A DNA stretch of 64,000 nt from a virus. Its lineage: Duplodnaviria > Caudoviricetes. The notes below the pieces were generated by a model. It ran no database searches, was not told the origin of the DNA, and saw nothing but the letters and a program-made list of their open reading frames with translations. Position 1 is the stretch's first letter. Each line of letters opens with the position of its first letter. Shown one piece after another: positions 1,546-54,839 of this stretch. The stretch lies in IMG/VR virus record IMGVR_UViG_3300027205_000173, positions 1-64,000 of that record, one strand, 5' to 3'. Both the position numbers and the translations under genes were made by a program.

Positions 1546-1548
1546 TCA

Positions 1549-1554: not shown

Positions 1555-1595
1555 CTTCGTCTACATTGCTGTCACATTACAAAAGGGATTTACAT

Positions 1596-2084: not shown

Positions 2085-2092
2085 GAGGCAAC

Positions 2093-3210: not shown

Positions 3211-3231
3211 TTACAGGCTCCGTATTCTGCA

Positions 3232-28415: not shown

Positions 28416-28768
28416 AACTCCGATATGTATTTTTTGAGGAAATCATCAGATTTCGTTAACTCTAATAAGTCTAGCCTATCTTCGGGAGGATAATTAATTA
28501 GTCCGCTTGTGATGAGTTCAAAATATGGCTTATCGTCTTCTCGTACCCAGTTCTTTTTTCCTGGGAGTGACATGATTGCAGCGATTTCTTGTGCTTTGTT
28601 TTTGCGGCTGGTTTCGTGGGGGTCGACTCCTGTTTGGAGTTTCCTGGCCCTACTGATGTGCTCGTCAATAGATAAATCTGAATTATTTACCGAGACTAAA
28701 GTCATTCCCCAAAGTTGTTTGATTTTTTGGTTCCACTCTTCTTGACTAATCATATTATTTTGCCTCAC
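28412..28768 (-). CDS. Hypothetical protein
   Basis: 118-aa ORF overlapping both neighbours in the operon. Confidence 0.6.
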   Translation of the reverse strand: MRQNNMISQEEWNQKIKQLWGMTLVSVNNSDLSIDEHISRARKLQTGVDPHETSRKNKAQEIAAIMSLPGKKNWVREDDKPYFELITSGLINYPPEDRLDLLELTKSDDFLKKYISEL

Positions 28769-34500: not shown

Positions 34501-37500
34501 GTTTCAACCAACGAGCAGATTGAAGATCAACTTCGCCATCATTGACCATACGCAAATATTCATTAATTTCGCCATCGCCAAAACCATTAGTTTTTAATAA
34601 TTCTCGCCCATTATCGCCAATTAAAGAATTGATATCTAACTTTTCATTATTCATGTCAAGTTTATTTACTGGGTAACGTATCTCGGCAACGTCATCCAAA
34701 CTCACCCCACCAGCAACAAGTGCTTCGTACCTATTCCCTGGTCTGAGAGCACGTTCTGATCTACTTGCTGAAATATCGTCAGACAGAGAACCACTAAAGT
34801 TGTCATCAATAACATTTTGCAAGGCATTAGCAATATTGCGCATTCTGTCTGATTCCGAATTACCCGCAGTAATCGATTCATTAAGGTGTGCTAATCCAAC
34901 ATCGCCAGGTTCGTCAAACAAAACTGGTGTTGGATAGTTGTGTGAACGAATTGCTTCTCCGCGTGAATACGCAGAACGAGAAGCAACTTCTGGTTTTAAT
35001 ACTAAATCAATATCGTTCCCGCCAATTCGTACATCACCCATTGGCTGGATATCTCCACTTTCGTGAAAGAAATCAGGGTTTCTGCTAATCCCATCGCTTG
35101 GAATTGATTCAAGATGATCTGAAATAACATTTTTAGCATTACGGTGAACCATGTAACCATTGGATGATCGTAAATTATCAGAAACTGCCGCATCGTAACC
35201 TAAAAATAATTCATGTTCTGATTTGAGTTTGGAAATTGGACTATTCGGTTTAATTTCTTGAATTGTTTTTAAGCGACCGTCAGACATTAAGTTATTCAAT
35301 GTATTTTCATTCATCGGAATACGTATACGATCATCAAAACCTTTATGAAAATTAGAATAAGAATCATCAATCATTTTAAGAACTGATTCAGGAGATTGGT
35401 TATTCAGTAATGTTTTGATTCGTGGATCAAGATTATTGATAAAGTCAAATTCGCTCTCGTTAGAAGGAGAGACGTCGCCATTTATAATATTTCGCATACG
35501 CCCCAATGACGCAGAAATACGATTATTTCTTTGCTCTACATGAACTTCACGTGGAACAACTTTTCCCCATTGCGTAGAAAGTTGTGTTCCATCTGGATTC
35601 CTATAACGAGCGGAGTAATTATTATCAACATTAAATGGCACGCTATTCTGTCTGCGCATAATGCTAGAAATGGAATCGTTTTGTTCCCTCTGGTTTTTTT
35701 GAGTCAAGGGATCATTGCTGCTACCACGAGAACGTGAACGCATTCCTCGGCCACGCTCAGTATTTGCATAATTATCAATCTGCCTACTAATCTCAGATTT
35801 AATAATTGACGCCTCATTCTTGATGGACTCATCAACACCATCAGCAGATGAAACATTATCTATGTTGCCGTCCATGCGCTTAAGTGTTTCCAGGGGTGTT
35901 TCCTGTTTGTGAATTGTTGCCTCAATAATGCCATTTTCATCTACGCCAGTTATAACGAAATCACCTGGGGGCAAAAGAACCCCATCACTATCACCACTGA
36001 ATGAATCACCAACAACAGTTCCACGACTTCCCGCAGGAACACTCAGACGCACAACTCTGGTATTTTCGGGCATAGTTGGCTGAGCACCTTCCAAAGTCCC
36101 TTCACCTATTAGAATTCCTCGTGTTGGGGTTGGCTTTGTAACTATTTCACCACCATCAATCTCATAATCTTTTGGTAATGGGTAGGCAATCATGACCGAC
36201 ATATCTTCATCAAATTCATGAGAATCAATATGAAATAATAGTGGTGCTAAGGAATCCCTAATTTCTTCATCAAGCAAAGGAGATTGAGTGTCTGGGGTCG
36301 GTGCCCCAATTGTTTCTGCATTTTCTTTTGCCTTATTGCGTGCGTTGGCAGAAGTGGCAAGAACATTGCCTGTTTGTTGTTCGGCTAATGCTCTTGTCGA
36401 TGATCGCATATCCGGTGGCGTCGAGCCATCCAATAAAGCAACGGTTTCTGGTTCCGTTGTATCTAATATTTCTTGTCTTCTCTGACGTCCCCACTCCTTG
36501 GGATTGGACGCAGGGGTGATCGGAGTAGGTGTTGTTTCAATTGGCTCTTTGGGAACATTTACTCGTTCTATTGGTCCATCAAATTTTTCTTCAAAATCAA
36601 TTTTGGCTTTGACTTCTTCTGGGGTTCTATCGTAGCGTTCTGCAAGTTCATCAATTGTGTAGTCTGTATTAGTGTAATCGTCAATTAAAGCATCCGTTAA
36701 TTTTACTTCTGAATAATCGTTTGCAAACGGGTCCACTTGTCCATCCCATGCCGGAATGTCACGTTTTTTCTTAGGTTCTGGAAGTGATTCATCGGGAATG
36801 GAAGTTCCTTTTTCACTTGGTTCATTTCCAGTAGCAGATGCCGGCTTTGCATATTTTTCACGATATTTATCTAAACTTGGCTTATATTTTCTTGATTTTT
36901 TAAATTTTTCCCTGTCGTACTTGTCTCCCGGATCAAAGCCAGCGTCTTCTACGTCTTGTAAAAATTCTTGAGATTCTCCATAGTCCACTTTTGAAAGTTC
37001 TAATTTTGCTTGTCGCGTTTTTCCGTCATCATTTAGATCGGGTGACCAGTCGGCATAAATACCATTTGCAGGATCAAATTTGGGAATGCCATTTTCTCTT
37101 TCGGGGGACAACCAATCCGTAGGGGTGTCATCTGCCCCTGTATTGCCAATCATCTTATTGACATCATCCAAAGTAAACTTAGGATTTTCAGGATCACCAG
37201 CATTTAACTCATTCAATATTTGTTCAGGAGTATAATTTTCCTTTTTCATTTTCTTGACAAATTTAGTAACTTCGGGGGGGTATTCGGGTTTTCTTCGTAA
37301 ATCTCTTTTATCTGAAAAAATACTTTTCGGAACAAGTCTGGAAATATTTTCCGTAGGGGCATCATAAATAGGACGCGAAGCCAATTCAATACCGGGAGGC
37401 CTTCTCACCTCATCCATACCACCAATAGCCTTGTCGATATCTGGCCCAGAAATAACGCCCATCTGCCTCAACGCATACAACTCAGCACGAGCCTCCTGAA

Positions 37501-39535: not shown

Positions 39536-41665
39536 TTACTTGGTCGTTGAAGGATTGTCTACCTCGGCAGCGAGCATCTCAAACTCAACGAGAGATTGAA
39601 TAAACTCTTCTGCCGGGTTGGACTTTTCTGCCGTTTTCCAATTTTCGGGAAGCATTTCCTCAAGACCCAACGCTGCAGCACGTGACTTGATGTGTGCTTT
39701 TGCTGCATCTGAGTCCTTTGCTCTTCCATGAGCCATGATTGCGTTGCGGAGATCGTTTTCGCTTGCAATTGGGAACGATCCATCAGGCATTGCGGTGCCT
39801 TCTTTTGCCATCTCTTGACGCTTATCTTCTGGGAATGCACGCTTGAGGGCGATTTCTGCTGCCTCTGCTTCGATTTCTGCTGTTTCGTCAGAGTTGTATG
39901 AGTCGTAGCCGAGCGTTTCGCCATCAAGTGCAACAAAAACGTCGTATGACTTGCCATCAACGCCATCGATTTCAACTTGATAAGAGTCGAAACCTTCAAA
40001 CACTGCTGGCTCTACGGCGACAACACTGCCAGGGATCGATTTGACAGCAATTTCTGCTGCTTCGTTAAAGTCGATGAGTTCGATGTCATCCATGATTGAC
40101 TTCTGTGAAAGAACTGAGTCATCCAGACGATGAAAGCCAAGAACTTCTGCTGATGTTCCATCAACGAATACTTCGTTAATGCTTCCAGACTTTGTCTCTA
40201 CGTCAATAACGTACATGTCCGCATCTTGCGAGTAGCCGGAGTCAATGACTTCGCCCTTGAACATAACTTCGACGAGTCCTTCGACGTGGAGGAGTCCTGG
40301 CATTCCTTTTTCTGCCATGCATCCACCAGGGCAGTCATCACATACGGATGCTGCGCCAGGATATACCTTGCGGTCGATAGCACACATATAGCCATTCATG
40401 CCTACATCTGCTGACTTTGTTCCAAGTTTACGTAGGCGTGCCATACGCATTGCTTCTAGATCGGGTGCCATATCCATATCGTCGGCTTCTCCTTCTTCGT
40501 CTTCCATGTACATTTCTTCGTTGTCTTCATCTTCAGGCATCATTTCGTCTGCCCTACGTTGCATTAGGCTGCGACGCATTTGTTGTGGCCTAGAACTGTT
40601 ACCCCTGCTTGGCATCATGTACATTTTGCCTTCTTCGTCCATCATGTACTCGTTACCTTCGTCATCCATATACATTTCTTCGTCCTCGTCGTACATTTCT
40701 TCATCAGAAGCCTTGCGAGGCATCGCATCAGAAATGCCGAGTATGTCGCGTCCTACCGCGAAGATTGGCTTAGGAGTGCCACCAGTTGATCTTCGTTCCC
40801 ATGGACCCCACATTGCTTCACTGCGGCGATTACTTGAATGGCCTGGGCTCGCCGTGGGTCTTGCACCGCCGCCGCCTGGCCGTGCGGCCATCTTGCCTTC
40901 ATCTTCCATGCCCATGTTCTCTTCGTCGTCCATGTACATTTCTTCTTCGTCGTCCATCATTTCTTCAGCCAACATTTGCATTCTTCCGGTCGGAGGTCGC
41001 TGCATAACTCCGCCACCGCCAGGCTTCCGGGGTCCGCGAGGACGTGGTCTTGGGTCTGGCAATGGGCCTGGGCCTGGGCGTCCACCACGACCGCCGCCGC
41101 CCATGCCGTACATGCCTTTTTCTTCTTCGTCCATATACTCTTCGTCGTCCATGTACATTTCTTCGTCCTCATCATCTTCGGGCATCATTTCTTCACCCTT
41201 GACTGGGCGGTAGAGACCATCTTGCATTGATGCGGTGTAGGCGCGACGGGTTGCTTTTGGTGTTTGCCACATTCCAGCACCCTTGGTTTTGAGCATGGGC
41301 TTACCATTCTCCATTGGTGCTTCTTCTTCTGATTCTTCTAATAAATCTTCTTCATCAGTGGTTTCTTCTTCGTCTTCTTCGTCGACGGGAACCATTTTGA
41401 TTTCGACAGCCATTGCGCCACATTTTCCACAGACTTTTTTGTCTGCTTCATATCCACATTCGGAGCCAGGCAAAGACTTGGCACACTTGATTACAGTACC
41501 ATCACCATCAATTTTGACGACCGATTTTTCGTTTAAATCCATTATGTGAGACTCCTTATAGTGAATGCTCTTGTCGAGACATCCGTTATGGCTGGGGCAA
41601 CCACTACAAGGAATATTAGCCTGTTCGGCTTCTACCATGCAGAAGTATTTGGATATTTTTTTCAT
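39536..41665 (-). CDS. 709-aa scaffold-like protein: Cys clusters, alternating acidic and basic blocks, 2x PepSY-like, C-terminal DUF6582-like domain
   Basis: D/E/M/Y blocks ending in K|G/M/A; IDFNEAAEIAVKSIPGSVVAVE...YQVEI...YDVFV...GETLG (PepSY); AMPDGSFPI...DLRNAI...HIKSRA...LPENW. Confidence 0.7.
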   Translation of the reverse strand: MKKISKYFCMVEAEQANIPCSGCPSHNGCLDKSIHYKESHIMDLNEKSVVKIDGDGTVIKCAKSLPGSECGYEADKKVCGKCGAMAVEIKMVPVDEEDEEETTDEEDLLEESEEEAPMENGKPMLKTKGAGMWQTPKATRRAYTASMQDGLYRPVKGEEMMPEDDEDEEMYMDDEEYMDEEEKGMYGMGGGGRGGRPGPGPLPDPRPRPRGPRKPGGGGVMQRPPTGRMQMLAEEMMDDEEEMYMDDEENMGMEDEGKMAARPGGGGARPTASPGHSSNRRSEAMWGPWERRSTGGTPKPIFAVGRDILGISDAMPRKASDEEMYDEDEEMYMDDEGNEYMMDEEGKMYMMPSRGNSSRPQQMRRSLMQRRADEMMPEDEDNEEMYMEDEEGEADDMDMAPDLEAMRMARLRKLGTKSADVGMNGYMCAIDRKVYPGAASVCDDCPGGCMAEKGMPGLLHVEGLVEVMFKGEVIDSGYSQDADMYVIDVETKSGSINEVFVDGTSAEVLGFHRLDDSVLSQKSIMDDIELIDFNEAAEIAVKSIPGSVVAVEPAVFEGFDSYQVEIDGVDGKSYDVFVALDGETLGYDSYNSDETAEIEAEAAEIALKRAFPEDKRQEMAKEGTAMPDGSFPIASENDLRNAIMAHGRAKDSDAAKAHIKSRAAALGLEEMLPENWKTAEKSNPAEEFIQSLVEFEMLAAEVDNPSTTK

Positions 41666-41718: not shown

Positions 41719-44700
41719 TTATTCATTGAGTGGAATCTTTACAGTGCGACCGGACTCGTTGGTTTTTTCTACAAATCGAGAATTAACCGGTTTTGCTGTT
41801 TTTCTGATAAATGTTGTCATGCCCGCTTCGGCTAGTTTGTCAAGCATTTGGGCAAACATATTAGTTCTGGAACCATCCGTCTGGGTCTGACGATCAACGA
41901 CGTGCATCAAGGCATCCATTACATCGTCCAGTTCACTCTGAGTAAGATACAAAGCACCAGCGTTGGTTCTCTTTCCACCAACATCGCCAGACTTCTGCCT
42001 ATCCATAATCTTTGTCAAATTTCTTAAAGAATTGGCAGTTTTGGAATCTCCAGACCTTTGTGCCTCAGAAATTTCCCTGCTCAATGATTGCTCTACCTTA
42101 TTGAACTCAGTTGCTTCCCAGCGAATTTCAGCGCGACCATCTTGTTCCGTTCCAGAACGTGAACGCATTCCTGCTTTTGGCTGCCGTTCGGCATTCTTGC
42201 GAGAACCTATGTAGCCATTGACTAGGCTCGAACGGGAACGTAGACCTTCTCCAGTCATAAATCTTGGAGTCGGATTGTCATCTTCCTCGCCACCGAGAGA
42301 AACGCCCGCTTGTTCACGAGAAGTATTTCCTCGCTTGATAAAAGGATCAGAATCTATATCATCATACAATTCTTCAAGGGTGTTCTTGAGTTTTGTGGCA
42401 TTATTGACACTCTTGCGTTCTGCTGGGCTCATTTCCTCCCCATCAAAACCAATAGTGTAATCATCAAGTGCTTCAATGATCGAACTCAATTTAGAAAGAG
42501 TCAAGTCAGTATCGTCGCCACCATCCTCAGCCTGAACCAAGTCCATCACTTCGTCCCATAGACGACCATGCTCATCTTCAGCATCGCCATCAATAATCGC
42601 ACCACTAATACTGTCCTGCGCCTTTGCAACGACTTTCTCAATAGTCGACATTTGCTTTTGGCGAACCTTTTTTGCTAACGCTGCTCGATTCTCTGGAGTT
42701 GTCTCGGCATCATCTGCCCGACGAGGTGAGTCTTGTTCCATAACTTCTGGACGACGTGTCACTGGGCCGGCTTCAGCCGAACGCTTCATTCTCTCGGCAA
42801 GTGCTTCCCGACGAGCAGTAATTCTGTCCTGCTGATCTTCAGCATCACGCAAACGCCTAAATGCAGCATTATATTCGCCGACCTGGATGCCGTTCGGATT
42901 AGTTGACTCGTCGTACTTGCCTGCAGAAATTAACGCATCAAACTTTTCATCTAGTGACAAAGTTTCGTAGTTTTCTGGAAGAGCATCCTTGGCCGTTCGT
43001 GGACCCTTGCCCTTTCCTGGACGAGAAGTAGACACGGCGCTGCCAGTTTGTGAACGCATACCAGAACCGACTCGTGACCTAACTCCACCACTACGGTTCT
43101 CTTCAGAGAATCGGTCAAACATATTGCGCAAAGTACTCCACTGACGCGCTGTCATGGTGCCGTTATTCTTCTTGTGAGCCTCAACGAGACCCTTAACTAT
43201 GCGGAAGTTGGGCTGACGACGACCCCAGTCAACAAGTTGACCCTGCATTCTTGGAGTAATATCTGCTGGAGCGCCATTATTGATGCGCTTACCATCGAAT
43301 TCCTCACCAGGCATATCAACATTGGGGCTGGTGTATTTTCCTTCTTTGCTGACTGAGGCCATTTCTAGTGGATCAGCACCAAACATCTTGATCCATGATG
43401 GATCAACTTTCTCTAATTCATCGTACGCCGTCATGACGTTGTCGTATTCTGAAGAAAGAATTGTCAAAGAACGACCAGGATTAGATTTTTTCTGATTCTG
43501 TAATTCCTCAAGAAGATTATCGTACTTCTTCATACCGTAAGTAATCATGCCGTTTCCGCCATGCTTCGCAGTAATTCCACGAATTTCATCACGAATTAAG
43601 CCAATTTCATCTACGGAAAGATTGACTTCCATTTTTTGATGTCTTGCTCCCGCTCGTGAACGGAAACCACCACCACCACGGGCTATATTAAGTTTTTTAT
43701 TGATTTTTTCTGCTGCTTCTGACAAGAAATTAGATGCTGCATACTCATCATTGCCCCACATGTCATTGGCGAGGTTGCTAATATTCGTAACTTGAGACTG
43801 AACTCGCTCAAGGTCACTGTCTTCGGTAATCCCGTTACGAAGCAATTCAATGGCATTGCCGTATACGGACTTTTCGTCTTCACTCATTGGAATCCGACGC
43901 AAATCACGTTCTAGGAAATCAACCGTCGTTGACTCAACACCATTAACATCACCATTTGGCTTGACGGAGTATGTCGCATTACGCTTCACATCATTGAGTG
44001 CTTTACCGAGACTCTCTGCTTCTTCAATGCTGTCTGCGTCATCAGCAGAAATACCACCAAATACGTAAGCCCCACCACCCTTATATTGGACGACCAACTC
44101 TTCTTTAGCGGCATCGTAACGAACGAAGTCAACAGCACTACTTTCGGCCATTCTGCGTGAAGGATAGATTTCGCGTGATTCGCCCAACCCTGTTCCGGCT
44201 TTGCTTCGCATGCCGTCAGCAATTTCTTGCACATCATCTGGATCGTCCGGATCGTCCGGCGGTCGCTTCGCTGCGGCTGCGAATCGTCTAGGCTCAATAT
44301 CCCTATCTTTGTTACGTCTAATAATTTCGCCAGGTTTGAATTTTTCACCGACTTCAAGTCCTTCTTCGCGATTAGAACGTGAACGCAAGCCCGCCTTTTT
44401 CATCCGCTCTTCATGCTTAATTAAATATTTTCTTGCTGCTTGTCTTCTTTGACGTGAAGCGGGTTTGCGCGCATCGGAACTGGGTTGATTTGCTATAGCA
44501 CCAAATCGTCTTTGAATATTTTTATCTGCAGCCTTACGTACTTCAAGATTCTCGTCTTCAAGTAAGTCTTTGATTGTTTCCAAATATGCCATATCATTAT
44601 TTGCAACATTTAGTCTAGTTTGAACATCCTCGCGACGTGAAAGTTCATCAAGATAATTGGGCGACATTAGATTCAGCCTGGAATCATGCGCAGCATCTCT

Positions 44701-47700
44701 TCGGTCTGCTTCTACATTTGCTGACGTTCCACCAGAGCGTGAACGCAATCCTTCTAGGGGACGTCTGCCCGGCTTTCCAGCAGCACGGACACGGTCAAGG
44801 CTGCGGAATTGCTCATCCTCGTAGAATACGTCGTCATTTCCCTGGTCTTCAATGTTTTGCAGGAAGTCCATGGCGTCTTCAACGGAATCAAACTCTTCAT
44901 CATCCGCTCCGCCATAGAAATACTCCACGCCATCTTCTGTACGGAACATACCAACAACTCCGTATCCGGGAGTGTCGTCGCCATAAATATCAGCCAGAGG
45001 GATAACTTCTGCGTCTACATTTTCGCCGTTAAGTCGATCAATCCACTTTGATCCCGTGTTGTATTTTGATTCGGCAACACCTTCACGCACCCCACCCGAA
45101 CCACCTTCGTCATCGTAAGAACGACGTGAACGCATGCCGGAAGTTGGCTTTGAATTAGTTCCAGGTTTACGCGATTTATTTTCTTTTCTGCGTCGATCAA
45201 TTTCTTGTTTTGCCGCAAAATAGGAATCCCTGATCTTCTTCTTTTCAAGCGGGTCATCGACACTGACTTTTCCGTCCGTAACATCGAACCAATCATTCAT
45301 TAAATTCTTTAGTTCTTCATCTGTGGCGTCTTCCATATTGGTTGATCCAGAATTTGTTTGTGAACGCATGCCTTCTAGTGGACGTCTGCCAGGCTTTCCA
45401 GCAGCACGAACACGGTCAAGACTACGGAATTCCGGATCACCATACAAAATTCCCTCATTACCCTGGTCATCAACATTTTGCAAGAAGTCCATAGCATCTT
45501 CAACAGAATCGAACTCTTCATCGTCCCCGCCATAGAAATACTCAATCCCACCGAATCCATCGTCAGTTCTATAAACGCCGACCACGCCATATCCAGGCCT
45601 GTCGTCACCATAAATATCCGCTAATGGAATAACATCGGCATCAACATTGTCGCCCTTGAGTTGATCAATCCACATGAAGCCTTCAAAATGTTCAGACTCT
45701 GCGACTCCTTCGCGAACACCACGCGAACCACTTTCGTCATCGTAAGAACGACGTGAACGCATTCCTTGCTGGCGTCCACCACGAGAACCAGACGGTCTGC
45801 TCACGTTCGGGAATGTGTCATTCGTACCAAAGGTGCGTGTTTCGGTAGTTCCATCAGACATGTTCTCCAACACCATTGTGACGTAGCCATCTTCTTGGCC
45901 ATCACTACGGATATCGGCAATACGAACCATCGGCTCGCCAACAGCACTAGTTTCATCATCCCAATTTTCGGGAAGAACATCACCAGGTGCTAAATCTATA
46001 ATGTTTGCTCGCGCTTCAACACCACGTTCTCTGTCGCCCAATTTGGGCCCTTTTCGATTAGGACGATTCTTGTACGAGGGCGCAGATTCCCAAGCACGAT
46101 CATCCATCAAGAATCCATTATTAGACAAGATGTCTGATGCTCTTTTATCTTTTGATATTGCGTTTACTAAAGCATCAAGTTTGTCGTCCATGTTGGCTTT
46201 GGCATTATCTCGCAAGGAAATATCTGAACCGACCGATCCTTCGCGATCCGCCCGATAGAAATCAATTTTCACTCCATTATCCAAGAGGTGATTTCGTAAA
46301 TATTTTTCGTTAGAAGACAAGTTCTTATCATCTTTGGAGAAAATTTCGCTTATATAGCCAATTGCGGCACCAGCAGAATTCCCAAAATCTTCACGTGAAC
46401 GGAAACCCCACTCATTTGTGGATGGTCCATCTTTTTTCTTGCCCGGAATTTTCTTCGAGCGAAGTTTTTGTTCTTGCATGATACGAACTTGATCTGGTGT
46501 CAATTTCGTGTTCATTTTACGTTTTTCGGAATTGTTCTTTTTTCCAGAACGTGAGCGCATTCCCCCATTTTTCAATCTGTCAAGTGCTTCTGTGACTTTT
46601 TCGTCAGCAAAATCAGACGACAAATCATCAATTTTTTCAGTTATTAAATAGTCAGGATCAATATCATCAAATTCAGAACCTTCAAAATTATCACGAAGAT
46701 TTGAGACAAACGATATGGCGTCCACGCTGTCCCAATGCTCGTCGTCAAAGAATGCCGGGTCAATCAAGTCTGTAATTAGTGCATCATATTCTTCTTGATT
46801 AATATCGCCATCATCCAGCATTTTCTTATAAGCAACACGGGCTTTCGTTGTGCCAGTTCTACCGACTAATCTCTGGGTGTCTTCACTAACTGCGTATTTT
46901 GCCCAATCAGTAATGCCTTTAATCTCATCATTGACACTATCTAATTCATTTTCAATCTCATCAAAAAGGTCATTTTCTTCATCGTTAAAATCTCGCCCAT
47001 TGGCATAATACTGATCCATTAATTCTTTTGATTTTGCATCAAGTTCATTACGACGTTGTGTGAGTTCTTCCAACTTATTGACTATTCCTTCGGAATTCTT
47101 TGATAAGTAGGCATCTCGCGTATTCTTAAAATTCTCATGCGAACCACTTCGTGAACGCATACCCGAAGAAGATGCTCCCATTAAAGTGTTGATTTCATCT
47201 TCCGTGAAACCAAGTTCCGACATCGTTAAACGACGTTTGTCATTTTGTTCTGCTAAGAATTTTTCTGAATCAAACTTAACTTTTCCTTTTTCGTCACGTT
47301 CAATCATTTCACGACGTGGACGACCAGTGGCATCCAACTCTGGTGCCTTTCTGGTTGCCGACTCAGCGCCTTGCTCTTTGCGTAGGTCAGAAAACTCTTG
47401 ACGTAATGGTGCTTGACGGCGACGGAATTCCGCTAAATCAATTTTCTCATCATCAAGTTCTTTTTCAAGATCACGTTGCTTTTTGATATTGGTATCAATT
47501 TCGGCATCAATATTGCGCCCTGTACGGGAACGTAAGCCCATTGTGCGTTGCTTGTCGCTATCTTTAACAATGTTGTCATACACTTCATTGGCGCGTCTCA
47601 AGATGCTTTCTTTACCTTGAGGAATTCTGCCAGAAGAAACAAAATCTTGGAATTCATCAACAGTTAGCCCATCGCTGAGTATATCCATCGACTCTAAAAA

Positions 47701-50700
47701 TGCGCGATTAGCAATAGATTCCATTTCTGATTCAAATATGCGCTCACCATCATCTGAAGGTCCAGATATTTGGTTTCGTGCATATCCCGCATAGCGACCG
47801 CTCAATACATCGGCAACATCATCTTTGGTAAATCCTTGACGCTTTAGTTCAGAACGAACAATCTTCATCAATTCGGGATTAATCCTCTGGTCACCATCAA
47901 AAATATCTTGCAGTTCTTTATCGCTCAAACCAAATTTCTGGCCGCTACGCTGCGACATTTGGGCAAGAATGTCAAATGCTCGCTGTTCTTTTGTTACTTT
48001 AGGCTCAACGCTGTTATTGCGTTCATTTCTTAAACCATCAGTGATTTTTGAACGGAAACCACGAAGCAGTTCCGGTACGTCGCGAGGACCGTCATAAGAC
48101 CCAAAGCGAAGAGGCTTTGGTTTAAAGTTATCCCAGTCAAGATTTTCTACTGACCAGCCCGTTTGCTGAACAGCACGCTCTTCTACTGGCTTGACATTGC
48201 CTTTTTCTAGATCGTGGGCGTAGGCTTTTCTTTGCGCTTTTCTGTATTGGCGCAATTTCTTTTTGTATTCCTGATCCCACTCTTCGAAAGTAGGGTACCA
48301 ATCCCAAGTATCGTAAGGTTTATTGCTGTCGACATCACGTTTTGCTTGATTGCGGAAAGAATCAAGCATTTCTTGTTTGCGTTGTGCTTTAGATTTTGGC
48401 TTGAAAGTCTCTAGAAGTCTTCTTTCAGCAGGTGTCAGAGTTTCTAGGGCACCATCTGATGGCTTGTAGTCGTCAGGGACGGTTGCTTTCCAGGTTTTGC
48501 TTTCGCTACGACGACGATCTTCTAGTTGGGAGTCAATGACATCTTGTGTTCCTTTTTCTTCTTCTCCCGATGACATGCCGCCATTGGGCAATGTTGATGG
48601 CTCTTGTCCGCGCTTGCGTGCATAAACGCTCTTATCTCCGGCGGAATAATCACCGAAATATTCAGGCTCACGTCCCTCGCTTTGATATACGTCGTAACCA
48701 CGTGAATCAAGTTCTTGAACCAAAGAACTCAATGATGGGCGATCTCTCAAAAGGAGGGAAGAAGATTGTGGATTCCTGTCCCATGGACGCCATGCCGTTT
48801 CTCCATACGATTGAAGAAGTTTAATAAGTTCCTCGTCACTCATATTTTGGAGTGCTTGAACTGGACCTCTTCTTCCGTACGCTGGTTTCAATTTTTTGTC
48901 TGGCTTGCTATCTTCCCTGAATCTACGCGAACGCATGCCACGATCTCTTCTGTTGCGATCAAAAATATTGTCTACAGCATCATCAAGGAGTTCGCGACCC
49001 TTTTCTCTAGCAAATTTCTTAGCCTCTCTCTTGAGGTCTTTGCCAATTTCGCGACCTTGCTTACGTACCGCGTCGCCAAGACGCGAACGCATTCCAACAT
49101 CATCGCGCTGTCGTTCGCCAACATTTTCCCAATGTGTTTGCACGTCAGAATTCCACATTTCTTCGGCACGACTCATTACTTTTTCATTGTCAAGAATGTT
49201 TGACCAATCAACGTCCTTCGGGTCAAGTTCGTCATCTTCGATCATTATTTCGACAGTACGTTCAAGTAAATTCTCGAAATGATCAGAATCTTGATCTAGG
49301 TCCTCGAATTGCTCGTTGTAAGTTGGGCCACGTCGCGAACGCATGCCACGATCTTTGTCGCGTAAAACAAATCCGTCTCTACCCCAAGAACCCTCATGAG
49401 ACATGATCGCATCGGAGACAGCACTTGCTACAAAACGCTTTTTATCTTCAGGTGATGCTTTACTGACATCTATTGACCATGACCAGCCACCGTCAGAGTC
49501 ACCTTCGGTTTCGATGTAATCAACGAGACCACTATCCTGAAGGAAGGAACCTGCAGGACCATCTGCTACATCAACTTCTGTATCAACAAAATCCATCCAG
49601 AGTCTTGATTCCGATGCATCACCCATACCATCGTTGAAGACCCTGACATCCAAGCCTTCTCTAATAACATCATTGTTACTATAGGCGTTATCGATAAGTT
49701 TATTGACTTCAGAAATATTATCCTTAGAAACAAACTCATCTAGTGAACGACCATCAAATATTTCGGGGGCATACTTCTCAATTAAAGGAGTAATTCTGTC
49801 TAGATAATCCTGAGTTGATTCGTCATCACCCTGGAATAGGTCTCTTGGGTCGACACCATCATCTTCAAGAACTTTACGAGCGCGATCTGCTGCTACTTGA
49901 TCCGAATATATTTTTCTCTGAGAAGTTGAGCGCATTCCACGTTCTTCGCGTTCCATATCACGTTGCATGTCTGCTTGCTCGTCAAGCATGTACTGGATGT
50001 ACTCGGGGTCATTTTCTGCTTCGCGTTGACGCTTCAGGCGATTCTCTTCACGCAGTTCTCGCATCGACTTCTGGGGCTTCTTGCGCGGTGCGTTGAGGCG
50101 ATTTTCACGGAACTGGCGGTCATCTTGTTCGTCAAGTTGATAATCGATTTCCGGATCACCCGAGCGTGAACGGAAACCGCGAACCCAGCCACGATCTTCC
50201 TCTTGGGCATTCTCTAAATCACTTTCAGCAGCCTTCTGGATATCGTCATCGAAGGCATCGGAATTATTGTATTCTTTAAACAATTTTTCCATTGCGGCAA
50301 TAGGGTCGTCTGATTCATTGACGTCATCCAGAAGGGAATCCCACTCGTCGTCAGTCATGTCCTTGTATTTGTCTACATTTTCTCTAGTCCAATCGCGAGC
50401 AGTCTCGTAATATCTATCCGAGTCCATCCTGCTCCACTCTTCGCCAACGTTTTCCATAATTGGTTCTAAGGGATCGTCATCTGGCTCATACCATGAATCA
50501 GGAGGACCAACATAGCCACGTGAACGCATGCCACGATCTTCGCGTTCCATATTGCGCTGATCGTCAGCCCACTCATCGAGCATTGCTTCGGTGTCATATT
50601 CTGCGGCATCGCGTTGACGCTTTAAACGATTCTCTTCGCGAAGTTCACGCATCGACTTCTGAGGCTTCTTGCGTGGTGCGTCAAGACGATTTTCACGGAA

Positions 50701-52695
50701 CTGACGGTCATCCTGTTCATCAAGTTCTGCATCAATATCCGAGTCGCCCGAGCGCGAACGCATTCCCTGCTGGCGTCCCTTGCTAGGTTTTGTTTCTCTT
50801 AAATTGGGGAATGGTGGAAAGGGGCGAGTTCTTTTTTCAAATTCTTCATCAGTTTCATCAAACTTCTTACGAGGTTTGCCGGTTCCTAGATCGAATGGCA
50901 GGTCAGAACCAATAGGTTGCATTTCGCCACGTGAGCGCATGCCACCATCATTAGTGCCTGATAAACTCTGTAAGAGATTAGGGTTACCACCGATATCGTC
51001 GATGATTGAACGTAGTTTCTTTTCATCAAAAGAAACATTGCCATTACCTGAGCGACGTTGCTTTTCAATTGCTTCGGCATCTCCCTCGACGACTGCCGAA
51101 AGTTTTCTGGCAAGGTTCTTGGGTACGATAAAGCGAGGAATAATTGGTCGTTCCAAGCCTGGCTTGCCTTCAAAAACAATGCCGTCAGAGTCGGCGTCAG
51201 TAACGCCAGTAATGTCAACGAATGCCATGCCTGCAGGAGCCGCACGCAAGCCGCCCCCTAGTTTCGGACCAATTTTGCCACTAAGGGCTTTTATTCTGGT
51301 CTTGGGGGCGTCTTTGGTGTTAGGCGCCCCATCACCTTTTTTTGAACCACCGCCACCATCTAGGTAGGAGGAGATATTTTTGTGGGCTGATCTGAGTGCC
51401 TGTAGTGAATCTTCGTTGATCCCGCTAGTGATATGGACTCCGTAGTCGTCAACGTGTGCTTCTAGGCGATGGTAATTGAGTACGGGGTCTAGTAGTGACT
51501 TGACCTCGTATGCATATTGTGGCTTGCACCATACCGAATATTCCAAGGCAGTTTTTTTCTGCTGTCCACCAGCAAGATTGCGCAAATAGTCGATGGCATC
51601 TTGGATTTTCTGCAATTCGCTTTCCTTGATTGTTTCATCTTCTCCGGCGTTAGAAAGAACTTCGACTGCCTGATCAAGTTGATCATCAAATGATTTCATC
51701 ATCGAAACTGGCTGCTGGGAATCACCATAGGACTGGGTTACATATCCTGGCTTAACCATCATCGGCATCGAAGGCATTTGCGATGGAACAATCTGTTGTG
51801 AAGCCATCTTCTCTGGCTTGCCGAACATGTATCTGCCGCTTTGTGACTCGCGATGGTACCCAATTCGATAAGTCATGCGGGTTCCGTCTGGCATTGTGCG
51901 ATCAAAAACAACGCTGTTTTCGGTTGCGTTCACTACTTTGAGTGGGCTTGCTGATCGTGAAGATAATTCCATTTCAAGTGCGGCACGAGCCTCGCCGCCA
52001 AGTTGGCCAGATTCTCCTGAAGCAAAAATGTCTGTTCGTTCGTTTGCTGCTGGGAATGTTTGCGGTTTTGCTGGGGAGAGGTTAAAGCGAGGGATGTCGA
52101 TAGCCGTCGAACCAGGTCGACTTTGACGCATTCCGCCCTGCATTCCTTCTGGACCACATTTTTCGCCATTTTCGTCGCTTTTGACGGAAAGTGTGGCAGT
52201 GAGTTGGTTTGCTCCGTGGAGAACAGGGCTGACTTCGTATAATTCAACTTCACGCAGGACGTTGGCTTGCATTGTGGGATCAAACGTTGCTTGAAGTGTC
52301 TTGTAGCCGATTGACCATTCTTGTTCTTGTCCAAAGAATGCCACGCTGCCAAATCCTTCGCGTCCCTTTTCCGTTGCAAGGTTGAATTGGACGCGAGCGT
52401 ATAGTCCACCGACCCCGGCCATCTTCATCTTCATGGGGATACGTGGGTCGTTTGCTGGTACTTCGTAGATTTCTAGAACTTTACCGATAGGGTCATTCCA
52501 GTTGTGTCCCCAGACCACGCGTGGCTTACGACGCTTGAGGCTTTCCGTAAATGCACCGCTGATGATCACATCGCCTACCGAATCCTTATTACCGATGGCG
52601 GCTACAAAACATTCAACGATTCCTTGCGCTGAGTCAATATTAATTTGACCATCAAGCGCTTTGAAAAGTATGTCTGACGTCGAGAAATTGGACAT
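41719..52695 (-). CDS. 3658-aa polyprotein: N-terminal HK97-family (S78) prohead protease followed by ~24 GMRS-delimited modules, including KTSC
   Basis: DSVGDVIISGAF, VWGH (catalytic His), WSIGY (catalytic Ser), LYEVSPVLHGAN; the domain ends at SVK|S near 52180. AAGGAG SD; directly downstream of the portal gene. Confidence 0.92.
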   Translation of the reverse strand: MSNFSTSDILFKALDGQINIDSAQGIVECFVAAIGNKDSVGDVIISGAFTESLKRRKPRVVWGHNWNDPIGKVLEIYEVPANDPRIPMKMKMAGVGGLYARVQFNLATEKGREGFGSVAFFGQEQEWSIGYKTLQATFDPTMQANVLREVELYEVSPVLHGANQLTATLSVKSDENGEKCGPEGMQGGMRQSRPGSTAIDIPRFNLSPAKPQTFPAANERTDIFASGESGQLGGEARAALEMELSSRSASPLKVVNATENSVVFDRTMPDGTRMTYRIGYHRESQSGRYMFGKPEKMASQQIVPSQMPSMPMMVKPGYVTQSYGDSQQPVSMMKSFDDQLDQAVEVLSNAGEDETIKESELQKIQDAIDYLRNLAGGQQKKTALEYSVWCKPQYAYEVKSLLDPVLNYHRLEAHVDDYGVHITSGINEDSLQALRSAHKNISSYLDGGGGSKKGDGAPNTKDAPKTRIKALSGKIGPKLGGGLRAAPAGMAFVDITGVTDADSDGIVFEGKPGLERPIIPRFIVPKNLARKLSAVVEGDAEAIEKQRRSGNGNVSFDEKKLRSIIDDIGGNPNLLQSLSGTNDGGMRSRGEMQPIGSDLPFDLGTGKPRKKFDETDEEFEKRTRPFPPFPNLRETKPSKGRQQGMRSRSGDSDIDAELDEQDDRQFRENRLDAPRKKPQKSMRELREENRLKRQRDAAEYDTEAMLDEWADDQRNMEREDRGMRSRGYVGPPDSWYEPDDDPLEPIMENVGEEWSRMDSDRYYETARDWTRENVDKYKDMTDDEWDSLLDDVNESDDPIAAMEKLFKEYNNSDAFDDDIQKAAESDLENAQEEDRGWVRGFRSRSGDPEIDYQLDEQDDRQFRENRLNAPRKKPQKSMRELREENRLKRQREAENDPEYIQYMLDEQADMQRDMEREERGMRSTSQRKIYSDQVAADRARKVLEDDGVDPRDLFQGDDESTQDYLDRITPLIEKYAPEIFDGRSLDEFVSKDNISEVNKLIDNAYSNNDVIREGLDVRVFNDGMGDASESRLWMDFVDTEVDVADGPAGSFLQDSGLVDYIETEGDSDGGWSWSIDVSKASPEDKKRFVASAVSDAIMSHEGSWGRDGFVLRDKDRGMRSRRGPTYNEQFEDLDQDSDHFENLLERTVEIMIEDDELDPKDVDWSNILDNEKVMSRAEEMWNSDVQTHWENVGERQRDDVGMRSRLGDAVRKQGREIGKDLKREAKKFAREKGRELLDDAVDNIFDRNRRDRGMRSRRFREDSKPDKKLKPAYGRRGPVQALQNMSDEELIKLLQSYGETAWRPWDRNPQSSSLLLRDRPSLSSLVQELDSRGYDVYQSEGREPEYFGDYSAGDKSVYARKRGQEPSTLPNGGMSSGEEEKGTQDVIDSQLEDRRRSESKTWKATVPDDYKPSDGALETLTPAERRLLETFKPKSKAQRKQEMLDSFRNQAKRDVDSNKPYDTWDWYPTFEEWDQEYKKKLRQYRKAQRKAYAHDLEKGNVKPVEERAVQQTGWSVENLDWDNFKPKPLRFGSYDGPRDVPELLRGFRSKITDGLRNERNNSVEPKVTKEQRAFDILAQMSQRSGQKFGLSDKELQDIFDGDQRINPELMKIVRSELKRQGFTKDDVADVLSGRYAGYARNQISGPSDDGERIFESEMESIANRAFLESMDILSDGLTVDEFQDFVSSGRIPQGKESILRRANEVYDNIVKDSDKQRTMGLRSRTGRNIDAEIDTNIKKQRDLEKELDDEKIDLAEFRRRQAPLRQEFSDLRKEQGAESATRKAPELDATGRPRREMIERDEKGKVKFDSEKFLAEQNDKRRLTMSELGFTEDEINTLMGASSSGMRSRSGSHENFKNTRDAYLSKNSEGIVNKLEELTQRRNELDAKSKELMDQYYANGRDFNDEENDLFDEIENELDSVNDEIKGITDWAKYAVSEDTQRLVGRTGTTKARVAYKKMLDDGDINQEEYDALITDLIDPAFFDDEHWDSVDAISFVSNLRDNFEGSEFDDIDPDYLITEKIDDLSSDFADEKVTEALDRLKNGGMRSRSGKKNNSEKRKMNTKLTPDQVRIMQEQKLRSKKIPGKKKDGPSTNEWGFRSREDFGNSAGAAIGYISEIFSKDDKNLSSNEKYLRNHLLDNGVKIDFYRADREGSVGSDISLRDNAKANMDDKLDALVNAISKDKRASDILSNNGFLMDDRAWESAPSYKNRPNRKGPKLGDRERGVEARANIIDLAPGDVLPENWDDETSAVGEPMVRIADIRSDGQEDGYVTMVLENMSDGTTETRTFGTNDTFPNVSRPSGSRGGRQQGMRSRRSYDDESGSRGVREGVAESEHFEGFMWIDQLKGDNVDADVIPLADIYGDDRPGYGVVGVYRTDDGFGGIEYFYGGDDEEFDSVEDAMDFLQNVDDQGNEGILYGDPEFRSLDRVRAAGKPGRRPLEGMRSQTNSGSTNMEDATDEELKNLMNDWFDVTDGKVSVDDPLEKKKIRDSYFAAKQEIDRRRKENKSRKPGTNSKPTSGMRSRRSYDDEGGSGGVREGVAESKYNTGSKWIDRLNGENVDAEVIPLADIYGDDTPGYGVVGMFRTEDGVEYFYGGADDEEFDSVEDAMDFLQNIEDQGNDDVFYEDEQFRSLDRVRAAGKPGRRPLEGLRSRSGGTSANVEADRRDAAHDSRLNLMSPNYLDELSRREDVQTRLNVANNDMAYLETIKDLLEDENLEVRKAADKNIQRRFGAIANQPSSDARKPASRQRRQAARKYLIKHEERMKKAGLRSRSNREEGLEVGEKFKPGEIIRRNKDRDIEPRRFAAAAKRPPDDPDDPDDVQEIADGMRSKAGTGLGESREIYPSRRMAESSAVDFVRYDAAKEELVVQYKGGGAYVFGGISADDADSIEEAESLGKALNDVKRNATYSVKPNGDVNGVESTTVDFLERDLRRIPMSEDEKSVYGNAIELLRNGITEDSDLERVQSQVTNISNLANDMWGNDEYAASNFLSEAAEKINKKLNIARGGGGFRSRAGARHQKMEVNLSVDEIGLIRDEIRGITAKHGGNGMITYGMKKYDNLLEELQNQKKSNPGRSLTILSSEYDNVMTAYDELEKVDPSWIKMFGADPLEMASVSKEGKYTSPNVDMPGEEFDGKRINNGAPADITPRMQGQLVDWGRRQPNFRIVKGLVEAHKKNNGTMTARQWSTLRNMFDRFSEENRSGGVRSRVGSGMRSQTGSAVSTSRPGKGKGPRTAKDALPENYETLSLDEKFDALISAGKYDESTNPNGIQVGEYNAAFRRLRDAEDQQDRITARREALAERMKRSAEAGPVTRRPEVMEQDSPRRADDAETTPENRAALAKKVRQKQMSTIEKVVAKAQDSISGAIIDGDAEDEHGRLWDEVMDLVQAEDGGDDTDLTLSKLSSIIEALDDYTIGFDGEEMSPAERKSVNNATKLKNTLEELYDDIDSDPFIKRGNTSREQAGVSLGGEEDDNPTPRFMTGEGLRSRSSLVNGYIGSRKNAERQPKAGMRSRSGTEQDGRAEIRWEATEFNKVEQSLSREISEAQRSGDSKTANSLRNLTKIMDRQKSGDVGGKRTNAGALYLTQSELDDVMDALMHVVDRQTQTDGSRTNMFAQMLDKLAEAGMTTFIRKTAKPVNSRFVEKTNESGRTVKIPLNE
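44740..45765 (-). repeat. Duplicated ~130-aa module (45361-45765 and 44740-45137), each copy bounded by GMRS/GLRS
   Basis: RRSYDDE.G..GVREGVAES...VIPLADIYGDD.PGYGVVG...FRSLDRVRAAGKPGRRPLEG(M/L)RS occurs twice. Confidence 0.9.
49928..50766 (-). repeat. Duplicated ~80-aa module (50523-50766 and 49928-50178), each copy bounded by GMRS/GFRS
   Basis: RSGD..ID..LDEQDDRQFRENRL.APRKKPQKSMRELREENRLKRQR...MERE.RGMRS occurs twice. Confidence 0.9.
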
Positions 52696-52814: not shown

Positions 52815-54839
52815 CTATGGTCTGCAATAGTCCCAAGAGCGACGTGCTTCTGCCGAGGCAACCTCTGGGCGAATCTTCACCAACAAATCGGTATAGATGC
52901 TGACAATGGATGTCTTTAGGGCACTGAGTCGTTCCTCGTCGTTCTTAATTCCAAACGAATTAAAGATAGCCATATCCAAAAGTGTCCGAGTATCGTCGTT
53001 TATAGACTTAATTCTAGTCATCTGAGCATCAAGATGTGCATGGATATCCGATGCTGACGGTCCAGAATAATTTGCTGACTTTTCTGCATATATGGACTTT
53101 GAGTCCTTGACGATAGCCGAAAGTACAGGACGGATATCCTCATCCATTTGCTTGGTCCACGTATCATTATTCAAAATGCTTTCAGAATCAAGAGAACCAG
53201 AACTCAAGAATTCCCTAGACTTCTTGCCGCCAACCTTCTCTAGGACAACACGCTGTTGACGTTCGAGTACTCGTTCTAGGCTTCGATCTAAGATTTCTTC
53301 CCAGCGCACAACAGCAATGTCTCGTTCCGCGCTGTCATCTTTGTAGGCCAATGGTTGCCTATCGGACATTTGGGCCATCGCCCCTTCGGGCCCTGCGGGA
53401 ATTCCCCCACCAGGCATACCCATTCCAGGAAAACCTCCAGGAGCGTCATTCGGTGCACCAGGGACTCCGCCCTGTTCTGCCATGAGTGCTCCAGCCATCG
53501 TATCTGGGGCTGGAGCGCCACCAGCGGCATCAGGAGGCATTCCAGCAGGCATTCCAGGAGGACCGCCACCCATAGGAACCCCGCCCTGACCAGGAGGAGG
53601 AGTGGGCTTGGTTGTATTTGCGATTGGGGTCAAGTTGGGGTTCATGAGAAGGCTATCCGCCAACTCCGATTCAACCTTCTTACGACCAGTTCCTTCACGA
53701 TATTCGTTGACGCTAATAAGTCCGCGACTTTGCTCATCCAGAAGGTATCTTTCACGCTCCTGCTTGGTAATAATCAGGTATGGAACGTCGGAAGTATCAA
53801 AGTCAATATAATGTTCAGCATCGAGGTCGTCAAGTGCTCGTGCCAAAATCTCCAAGTGAGGAGACATAGTCTCATTCCAGAAAACGCTCACTTCCTCGGC
53901 AGCGTTGCTGAATGTTCTGCCAGAAGCATTACCGATGACTGACTCAGGAACGCCAAACGAAGCAAGGATTTCTTCCTTGGTGATCTGACGCATTTGAATA
54001 TAGGCAGCATCTCGCGGATTTGACGAAGTATCAACATAATCAACGCCATCATCAGCCGAAATAACAGTAGTTGACCCAACGCGACCCAAGTTGCCCCTAA
54101 AACGGTTCCTTAACTCATCTTTGTCATCTTCATCGATTTCCCCACGAAGAACCAACAAACCACCAGGACGACCATCATTAAGTAGGTAGTTGCGGTTATA
54201 GAGTTTCGCTAAGTTCTCAATTTCAATAGCAACGCCAGCGGACTCCATGGGAGTTAGTGACAAGTAAGGGTCTAGTGGATGTGGTCGACGAACCCAAATA
54301 ACATCATCGGGATTCATGATGATCTTGGTGCCAGTTGGCATTAAGACTTCATACCCAGAAACGAACTTAACAGGGTCGGGGATAGGTGCAGTTGATTGAG
54401 GAGGAAGGAGATTTAGCCCAATAATTGAGCCATCACGACCACGAACCTTCTCAATAAAAGCGCCACGAGTTCCAAGAAGAATCTGAGATGAGAGACGGTA
54501 TCTAAAAATATACGCATTTTCACCAATATTGGATTTTGTGTTCAAAATTGTCAATAATGATGATTTATCAGCAGTATCCCCACGAACAATACGGCCAATT
54601 GGCGAATTTTCTTTACGAAGGATGACAGGGAGGCGAGCCTGATTACCTGCGATGGCATCAATACAGCGTGCCACCCAGGTGACTTTCTGCATTCCCTCGC
54701 GATAAGCGCGCTCAATGTCCCAGGGGTCACGATAGGCGCGTCCAACAAAACTTGGGTTTGCTGAAACGGGTGCGCCAGGACCAATGAGCGACTTCCCGCC
54801 CTGGCCATTTAATGATTTATTAGAAATATTCCAAGCCAT
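52815..54839 (-). CDS. HK97-type portal protein with a P/G/M-rich linker and C-terminal MuF-like extension
   Basis: WVARCIDAIA, GAFIEK...LNLLPP, PLDPYLSLTPM, NDGRPGGLL, EILASFGVP...TFSNA, GLISVNEYR. Confidence 0.92.
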   Translation of the reverse strand: MAWNISNKSLNGQGGKSLIGPGAPVSANPSFVGRAYRDPWDIERAYREGMQKVTWVARCIDAIAGNQARLPVILRKENSPIGRIVRGDTADKSSLLTILNTKSNIGENAYIFRYRLSSQILLGTRGAFIEKVRGRDGSIIGLNLLPPQSTAPIPDPVKFVSGYEVLMPTGTKIIMNPDDVIWVRRPHPLDPYLSLTPMESAGVAIEIENLAKLYNRNYLLNDGRPGGLLVLRGEIDEDDKDELRNRFRGNLGRVGSTTVISADDGVDYVDTSSNPRDAAYIQMRQITKEEILASFGVPESVIGNASGRTFSNAAEEVSVFWNETMSPHLEILARALDDLDAEHYIDFDTSDVPYLIITKQERERYLLDEQSRGLISVNEYREGTGRKKVESELADSLLMNPNLTPIANTTKPTPPPGQGGVPMGGGPPGMPAGMPPDAAGGAPAPDTMAGALMAEQGGVPGAPNDAPGGFPGMGMPGGGIPAGPEGAMAQMSDRQPLAYKDDSAERDIAVVRWEEILDRSLERVLERQQRVVLEKVGGKKSREFLSSGSLDSESILNNDTWTKQMDEDIRPVLSAIVKDSKSIYAEKSANYSGPSASDIHAHLDAQMTRIKSINDDTRTLLDMAIFNSFGIKNDEERLSALKTSIVSIYTDLLVKIRPEVASAEARRSWDYCRP

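Follow-up and report, generated by a model that had tools for sequence, protein, structure and literature searches.

Introduction

This study concerns a window of 64,000 nucleotides of tailed-phage DNA, i.e. the whole stretch formed by positions 1 to 64,000 of the IMG/VR record IMGVR_UViG_3300027205_000173, and in particular one giant open reading frame (ORF) located in it, in which a prohead protease of the S78 family is continued by a long chain of cargo modules delimited by a short peptide tag. The record is a virus contig of 124,933 bp, about 84% complete, from an uncultured aquatic phage, and it encodes a tail sheath; the phage is therefore a myovirus.

Several described systems share parts of this arrangement. 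Herpesvirus assemblin (UL26/UL26.5 type) has an N-terminal protease fused to an assembly protein and cleaves itself at (V/L/I)-x-A|S, and the locus gives two products, with and without the protease. In phage HK97 the capsid protein is cut at K103|S104, and the protease is said, in work of Duda, Oh and Hendrix of 2013, to carry a C-terminal capsid-targeting part. Two products are also made from the E. coli gene dnaX (tau and gamma), where an A-AAA-AAN heptamer is followed by a short spacer and a downstream hairpin, and where the -1 frame stops after 1-2 codons and gives a shortened product.

The polyvalent proteins of phages and conjugative elements are giant multi-module proteins encoded beside virion genes and predicted to be packaged and injected; they contain ArdC-N, MPTase, nuclease, helicase and toxin-type domains, and rare fusions to a C-terminal assemblin-like peptidase, predicted to process polyvalent proteins, have been reported (PMC5512222). 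A search of the text of that paper found no mention of linkers, and the term "cleavage site" only in the reference list; therefore, no inter-module tag is described there. For the head protease gp245 of phage SPN3US, 14 cleavage sites were mapped in 9 substrates, with Ser preferred at P1' (PMC10052503).

The locus analyzed here is of the same giant multi-module type as the polyvalent proteins, with effector domains typical of such proteins in the sister giants and orthologous fusions (PMC5512222) and with the same virion-gene context. The protease is, however, N-terminal and the fused form widespread, whereas it is C-terminal and rare among the polyvalent proteins, and PMC5512222 describes neither a chassis of an address module and a C-terminal module nor a recoding site. 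As in T4 (gp21) and phiKZ/SPN3US (gp175/gp245), where packaged proteins are cleaved at a short motif by a head protease of the assemblin fold and the fragments leave the head together with the DNA, a head protease is found together with a short motif, but theirs is of the T4 gp21 type and cuts after Glu, whereas here it is an S78 enzyme and the tag is G-hydrophobic-R-S. Moreover, their substrates are separate proteins that lose an N-terminal propeptide; none is a polyprotein with 5-24 sites and none is fused to the protease, so that the resemblance is one of mode of working and not of membership.

The closest architectural parallel is the herpesvirus protease-scaffold fusion, with Ser at P1' and an N-terminal protease of the same fold (which our structural model matches weakly). 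There, however, the downstream part is a scaffold and the second product comes from a nested promoter, whereas here the downstream part would be a chain of effector modules and the junction has a candidate frameshift site. With HK97 gp4/gp5 the locus shares the S78 protease family and a gp5-homologous capsid protein with an N-terminal delta-like domain, but the HK97 protease has about 225 residues, carries no cargo and adjoins the capsid gene, whereas here about 31 kb of cargo genes lie between the end of the protease-cargo gene and the capsid gene. The candidate junction cassette is like that of dnaX in heptamer, spacer and hairpin, with the difference that the polarity is reversed in the split relatives, where the shift would extend the protein. 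As in the RNA-virus polyproteins that carry their own protease, many proteins would be released from one translation product by cuts at short sites that recur along it; the proteases are nevertheless unrelated, and the purpose here would be to load the virion and not to express genes through one ORF. Searches of the literature on the tag, on protease-ArdC fusions and on frameshifting of prohead protease genes turned up no earlier account of the family, the tag or the junction cassette. The system combines polyvalent proteins with head-protease processing and is widespread in uncultured phages. We give a probability of about 0.5 to the explanation that it would consist of an S78 protease unit and a head-cargo polyprotein that is cut at the tags and delivered with the DNA.

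The protease-cargo fusion

A preliminary description of this DNA had proposed that an intact S78 protease with the motifs WGH, WSIGY and EVSPV, ending in S-V-K-S, occupies about 52180-52695 and that the frame then runs on through about 3,480 residues of cargo in about 24 modules delimited by a motif. The features of the ORF, all on the minus strand, are as follows (coordinates are those of the window, residue numbers those of the protein).

41719-52695, minus strand: fusion ORF (protease unit plus predicted cargo polyprotein), a single stop-free ORF of 3,658 residues
52186-52626, minus strand: S78 prohead protease catalytic domain (residues 24-170; His64, Ser128), from Pfam and PHROG
52177-52188, minus strand: S-V-K-S (residues 170-173), candidate self-cleavage site; S170 and K172 invariant
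51337-52179, minus strand: protease-unit extension (residues 173-453), within the separate protease gene of split relatives, conserved in 235 relatives and seen in the model
50926-51291, minus strand: address module (residues 469-590), with the first tag (residue 585) at its end; common to other cargo giants
42163-50934, minus strand: about 22 variable cargo modules (residues 588-3511) with G-[MFLV]-R-S between them, from the tag positions
49930-50757, minus strand: duplicated pair, residues 647-724 and 843-922, 78% identical from tag to tag
44743-45756, minus strand: duplicated pair, residues 2314-2444 and 2523-2651, 76.5% identical from tag to tag
43978-44145, minus strand: KTSC domain (residues 2851-2906), from Pfam, with weak fold matches to 4rgi and 7x8c
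41722-42162, minus strand: conserved C-terminal module (residues 3512-3658; 147 residues), confidently folded in the model

The frame indeed continues unbroken past the protease over 3,658 codons. The Pfam profile Peptidase_S78 (PF04586) matches residues 24-170 with 40.3 bits (curated cut-off 21; E 4.8e-10), PHROG 3244 (head maturation protease) also matches the ORF, and all of the proposed motifs were located (WGH at 62-64, WSIGY at 127-131, EVSPV at 154-158 and S-V-K-S at 170-173). Among 52 relatives, H64, S128, S170 and K172 are invariant. The AlphaFold model is confident over residues 20-159, and this part of a 590-residue query model weakly matches T4 gp21 (5jbl) and herpesvirus proteases, with probabilities of 0.8-0.95 and E values of only 0.05-0.1. 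The invariant S-V-K-S sits in a low-confidence segment after the protease fold and fits the small-hydrophobic-x-Ser pattern of the tags.

Residues 173-453 are modeled as two small folded domains (about 229-300 and 334-445) with disordered Pro/Met-rich linkers between them. As these residues lie within the separate protease gene of split relatives, they are part of the protease and not of the cargo. The proposed boundaries hold for the catalytic domain, which ends near residue 172, and for the existence of a motif-delimited module chain, whereas the protease unit extends to about residue 453 and the cargo proper starts only near residue 469.

The ORF also holds up against the suspicion of misassembly. 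Other ENA/JGI assemblies encode proteins of 3,078-3,639 residues that are 78-97% identical and each contain S78 plus KTSC, and the 3,658-residue ORF is also present in a viral contig that is 92% identical. Additionally, the protease-cargo junction is crossed by contigs from three runs other than the source (marine 2017, lake 2022, lake 2025), with no indel listed there; this check was made on the assembled contigs of those runs. Metatranscriptome contigs match parts of the fusion gene, which cannot be read as proof of transcription. The fusion of protease and cargo is confirmed as an observation, and its earlier interpretation, a packaged and self-released cargo, is partly supported.

The inter-module tag

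The tag G-[MFLV]-R-S occurs at 24 sites of the fusion ORF, against 0.4 expected from composition, and 25 segments result (8-587 residues, most of them 50-290). The consensus is (R/G)-G-M-R-S-R-S-G, with polar flanks rich in Gly, Ser, Arg and Asp. Across four giant proteins of the operon there are 51 tags, and elsewhere in the long ORFs of the whole record only three single hits, which is the chance level. Among the 51 tags there are 27 different 12-mers, Gly is encoded by every one of its codons, and Arg and Ser are each encoded by both of their codon families; the constraint therefore acts on the peptide. A codon bias can nevertheless be observed (CGT in 39/51, TCA in 31/51).

In two modeled stretches, all six tags fall in linkers with a pLDDT (predicted local distance difference test) score below 50 between confidently folded units. 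No tag lies inside any Pfam domain of the window giants or their relatives, and the domains are closely bracketed by tags. In the relative P0086, for example, a UvrD helicase (1921-2519) lies between the tags at 1891 and 2544, an exonuclease (3181-3368) between those at 3136 and 3418, and ArdC-N plus MPTase after the tag at 4357; the Pfam domains of the relative P0061 are likewise bracketed. Among contigs of other metagenomes there are strain variants from which precisely one module is missing, either 1120-1203 (252 nt) or 923-1119 (591 nt), and in further strain contigs the order of the modules is changed at joints that lie at tags. The position in disordered linkers, the bracketing of domains and the module as the unit of duplication and deletion support the view that the tag behaves like an inter-domain processing site, and we consider it probable that the tag is a site of proteolytic processing.

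At 49081-50532 (minus strand) of the window, the deletion and reordering joints coincide with tag-coding DNA, and the tag DNA may double as a recombination joint.

Chassis and exchangeable modules

Three other tagged giants are encoded in the same operon, all without a protease.

31535-39523, minus strand: 2,662-residue giant with 5 tags and an RNase_T exonuclease domain
18119-25750, minus strand: 2,543-residue giant with 17 tags, an address module and KTSC
10873-17718, minus strand: 2,281-residue giant with 5 tags, a zeta-toxin-like kinase, pentapeptide repeats and ArdC-N plus MPTase-PolyVal

The address module of the fusion protein is 73% identical to residues 226-336 of the 2,543-residue giant, its profile matches residues 219-287 of the 2,281-residue giant (E 1.7e-13), and it forms the N-terminus of the separate cargo genes in split relatives. 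At the other end, the C-terminal module is found at the C-terminus, or within about 30 residues of it, in 72 relatives of 1,002-3,639 residues. The shared address module and the conserved C-terminal module make the cargo proteins look like a fixed chassis with exchangeable inserts. In a 926-residue protein without tags (28755-31535, minus strand), residues 159-187 weakly match the address-module core (E 7e-6).

Multiple unrelated effector-type domains are seen in the sister giants and in orthologous fusions (ArdC-N/MPTase, exonuclease, helicase, sigma-r4 and zeta-toxin domains), and the fusion ORF itself contains many folded modules of which KTSC alone was recognized. In the 2,281-residue giant, DUF3721, the zeta-toxin-like kinase, the long pentapeptide repeats and a complete ArdC unit each occupy their own tag-bounded module. 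The hub domains MPTase and ArdC-N were not found by Pfam in the fusion ORF; they are present in its 2,281-residue neighbor, in P0061 and in P0086.

Fused and split relatives

The N-terminal unit is encoded by at least 583 IMG/VR contigs, and an exhaustive profile-free search related 245 protein clusters to the fusion protein at E<=1e-30. In answer to the question of length distribution raised in the preliminary description, these relatives span the range from about 180 to more than 5,300 residues continuously, with the protease always N-terminal. A census of the best 80 related viral contigs gave 51 fused forms and 12 split forms in which the address module opens the next ORF, the rest being cut off or unclear. 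In the split relatives (about 57% identity; L012, L013 and others), a protease gene of 460-494 codons corresponds to residues 1 to about 445 and is followed by a cargo gene of more than 3,300 codons, whose product has the counterparts of residues 469-590 and 3512-3658 at its N-terminal and C-terminal ends, respectively. On a quick maximum-likelihood tree of the protease (IQ-TREE), at least three changes between the fused and split states are needed.

Since close relatives encode protease and cargo as two genes, the fusion is not what guarantees packaging. The idea that fusion to an obligately packaged enzyme guarantees encapsidation of the cargo was thus not borne out; it is also contradicted by the three tagged giants that have no protease and by the cargo's own N-proximal module.

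In nearly all giant relatives the dominant tetrapeptide is of one shape (GMRS, GLRS, GSRS, GLAS, GFAS, GMAS, GFSS, [RK][LF]SSG, STRS or SSRS). The family-wide pattern is a small residue, a hydrophobic residue, R/K/A/S and Ser, the invariant part being the hydrophobic residue and the Ser two positions later. Separate cargo genes within one genome use the dialect of that genome: a complete 148-kb relative has RFSS/FSSG in both of its giants, and another relative has GLAS in four genes. In some genomes the third position varies among R, A and S, and the dialects are lineage preferences within one loose rule and not strict codes. Co-evolution of protease columns 135/137 with the P1 class of the tag was considered and rejected, as the same D135/I137 pair serves A, S and R tags and genomes mix types.

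Cultured phages match the protease domain alone. Among GTDB genomes, the full N-terminal unit was found only in contigs of metagenome-assembled genomes (MAGs), while actinobacterial isolates match the protease domain alone; because the MAG bins span unrelated phyla, no host is proposed.

A candidate recoding cassette at the junction

Two further features are located where the protease unit ends.

51337-51343, minus strand: in-phase slippery heptamer A-AAA-AAA (codons S451-K452-K453, TCA AAA AAA)
51305-51330, minus strand: GC-rich hairpin, 6 nt after the heptamer (-17.1 kcal/mol, z -4.2, 0/200 shuffles fold as well)

The -1 frame from the heptamer reads K-K-R-stop and would give a protease-only product of 454 residues. 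The heptamer is one of only three in-phase A-AAA-AAN sequences in the whole ORF (background rate 1.2 per 1,000 codons). An A-run is found at the homologous junction in at least six lineages, both fused and split (L010-L018, L046-L055, L061/62 and L073); it has seven A's, or eight in L010, and the preceding base is G and not A in L061/62 and L073. In each of these lineages one frame stops within 0-10 codons and the other enters the cargo. In the split relatives the stop within 0-10 codons is in the 0 frame, and the open frame that leads into the cargo gene is the -1 frame. A hairpin about 5-7 nt downstream was obtained for most of the eight relatives folded, and is not in the minimum-energy fold of L013.

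We lean slightly towards the view that recoding is used at the junction. Both fused and split genomes could then make both products, and this shared slippery site weakens the inference that the split relatives prove the fusion dispensable, as split genomes could still make some fusion protein. The covalent link between protease and cargo may therefore matter.

The putative tape-measure protein and candidates for the cutting enzyme

The following gene is located outside the window, downstream of the sheath gene.

Record 79796-84163 (L115:2897-7261), plus strand: putative tape-measure protein, 1,455 residues, Ala/Gly-rich

This protein has one tag at residue 620, R-Q-Q-G-M-R-S-Q, with the same R-Q-Q prefix as in two tags of the fusion protein. 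Its orthologues in five relatives carry the tag variant of their own lineage near the same position: the GLAS phage has three copies of GLAS, the [LF]SSG phage has RFSSG and KLSSG, and three others have GM[AS]S. Such dialect-matched tags suggest that a common reader acts on a protein that is never in the prohead, which speaks against a restriction of cutting to the prohead. One possibility would be that the S78 enzyme also works outside proheads, the other that a different protease reads the tag. Of the peptidases, S78 alone was seen in all these operons, and a search for MPTase-PolyVal was negative in an 88%-complete relative in which the GLAS-tagged head module is present in full, as well as in two fragmentary relatives. 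Also in favor of the S78 enzyme, its own S-V-K-S and the hydrophobic-K-S of the capsid protein fit the pattern of the tags, and a Ser after the cut is shared by HK97 (K|S), the herpesvirus assemblins (A|S) and, as a preference, SPN3US gp245. The odds that the S78 protease is the cutting enzyme appear close to even.

The head operon and its capsid protein

52815-54839, minus strand: portal protein, directly upstream of the fusion gene
9229-10536, minus strand: HK97-fold major capsid protein, its N-terminal delta-like domain conserved; the gene lies about 31 kb downstream of where the fusion gene ends

The surroundings are those of an S78 protease, with an adjoining portal gene, a head module and an HK97-fold capsid protein in the same phage. 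They are also those of polyvalent proteins, as terminase, portal and capsid genes flank the giants; the terminase gene is divergent and lies upstream of the fusion and portal genes. The capsid protein is a clear homologue of HK97 gp5 (E 2e-60 to 3qpr). It has two hydrophobic-x-Ser candidate sites, at 95-98 and 140-142, of which the alignment with HK97 favors the second, and a hydrophobic-K-S sequence is present in the linker of 9/10 orthologues. The N-terminal 72 residues are nearly invariant among relatives with capsid proteins 74-93% identical overall, which is unusual for a delta domain and may reflect many binding partners.

Directly after the fusion gene, at 39536-41665 (minus strand), a very acidic protein of 709 residues is encoded, with D/E-rich Met-Tyr repeats and a Cys cluster at either end; similarly acidic proteins of 457-516 residues are found at the same position in two relatives, and a role as scaffold or core protein is possible. 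A 503-residue protein at 4400-5911 (minus strand) contains DUF6321 (PF19846), a domain that is found inside the protease-cargo fusion in P0016, P0033 and P0120.

Discussion

The explanation that we prefer would work as follows. Residues 1-453 would be an HK97-type (S78) prohead protease with an extension of about 280 residues, and residues from about 469 to 3658 a polyvalent-type head-cargo polyprotein composed of an address module, about 22 swappable modules and the conserved C-terminal module. The giants would be built into the prohead, and that they are packaged in the head is, in our judgment, likely. A protease, for which the S78 enzyme is the best candidate, would cut the giants at the tags, most probably at the bond that precedes the invariant Ser, so that about 55 separate pieces would result from the four giants and enter the host with the DNA. 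The slippery A-AAA-AAA and the hairpin would probably give the fusion in the 0 frame and the 454-residue protease in the -1 frame, and the split relatives would make the same two products with the frames reversed.

Several observations weigh against this explanation. No domain other than KTSC was recognized in the cargo of the fusion protein by Pfam, PHROGs, a PDB sequence search, Foldseek against the PDB and one ESM Atlas query. The exact tag is absent from the capsid protein, and the position homologous to HK97 K103|S104 aligns about 45 residues downstream of its hydrophobic-K-S site. The residue at P1 varies (R/A/S), even in one genome, with no matching change in the protease; the tag is present in the tape-measure candidate, which is not inside the prohead; and zincin-type peptidase domains that ride in the cargo could do the cutting. 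As for the junction, the heptamer is missing from the split lineage L021/L023 and from many fused lineages, and the hairpin clearly beats shuffled sequences (z below -2) in only 4/8 lineages. Finally, neither residues 172-585 nor the C-terminal module had a tblastn match among 50,697 deposited phages, so that there is no cultured relative among them.

The tags could be cut by a different protease that acts in the cytoplasm or following ejection, e.g. a cargo zincin such as MPTase-PolyVal, some other enzyme of the phage or one of the host; the S78 enzyme would then process only capsid proteins. The lineage-matched tag of the tape-measure candidate is in line with this, MPTase-PolyVal is present in the 2,281-residue giant and in many orthologous fusions, and MPTase was proposed as a processing enzyme of polyvalent proteins by Iyer et al. 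(PMC5512222). However, the failure to find MPTase-PolyVal in the three relatives mentioned above, the status of S78 as the sole peptidase common to these operons and the fit of its own invariant S-V-K-S to the pattern argue against it, and a host enzyme is hard to reconcile with a pattern common to MAG contigs binned to very different phyla, although such binning is unreliable; we regard this alternative as unlikely, but serious. A somewhat smaller chance is given to tags that are not cut at all and serve as hinges, as modification or recognition sites (e.g. for threading through the portal) or arise as by-products of recombination, the giant being packaged intact like the virion RNA polymerase of phage N4 (about 3,500 residues), which is packaged unprocessed (PMC5512222). 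The reshuffling joints at tags, owing to which repeated DNA could persist as a recombination substrate, and the codon bias would agree with such a role, but the peptide is kept through both codon families of Arg and Ser and 27 12-mers, the invariant Ser and hydrophobic residue persist across lineages with diverged DNA, the tape-measure candidate, which is not modular, has the tag as well, and hinges need no fixed tetrapeptide.

It seems quite improbable that the giant is a sacrificial scaffold or core that fills the prohead, is chopped at the tags and exits before DNA entry, so that its modules would not be delivered effectors. Protease-scaffold fusions are common in phages and herpesviruses, and the modules are highly charged (D+E+R = 28% in the fusion protein) and mostly without recognizable folds; furthermore, propeptides normally leave the head (PMC10052503). 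The modules are nevertheless folded and individually conserved, sister giants and orthologues carry enzymes aimed at host defense and DNA, a scaffold has no need for at least 20 different and rapidly exchanged modules, and a delta-like scaffold domain is already provided by the capsid protein. An assembly or sequencing artefact, such as an error in the A7 run that fuses two genes, would account for a junction at a homopolymer where close relatives have two genes, but A7 is present in both fused and split forms, which differ in the bases after the run. As the contigs from the three non-source runs span the A-run with no indel listed, several other assemblies yield the same fused protein and 51/80 of the best related contigs are fused, we consider an artefact practically negligible.

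In a broader and rather speculative extension of the preferred explanation, a large clade of uncultured myophages of about 125-150 kb would use one conserved S78 protease that reads the loose small-hydrophobic-x-Ser rule and cuts both the giants, at dozens of sites, and the tape measure, a dnaX-like -1 frameshift would set the ratio of free protease to fusion, and the tag DNA would be a recombination joint at which strains gain, lose and reshuffle effector modules.

If the tags are cut, about fifty separate proteins per genome would be delivered from four genes, many of them anti-defense or takeover enzymes, which would amount to a kind of polyprotein strategy that is not known to have been described in tailed phages. 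With the tag as a simple guide, thousands of giant ORFs from metagenomes that lack annotation could be divided into functional units and mined for new effector domains; together with the address and C-terminal modules, the tag is a candidate chassis for loading foreign proteins into capsids. If true, the junction cassette would be a new example of recoding during the assembly of phage heads and a direct handle on the stoichiometry of protease and cargo, and the tag in the tape-measure candidate raises the question of what processes tape-measure proteins.

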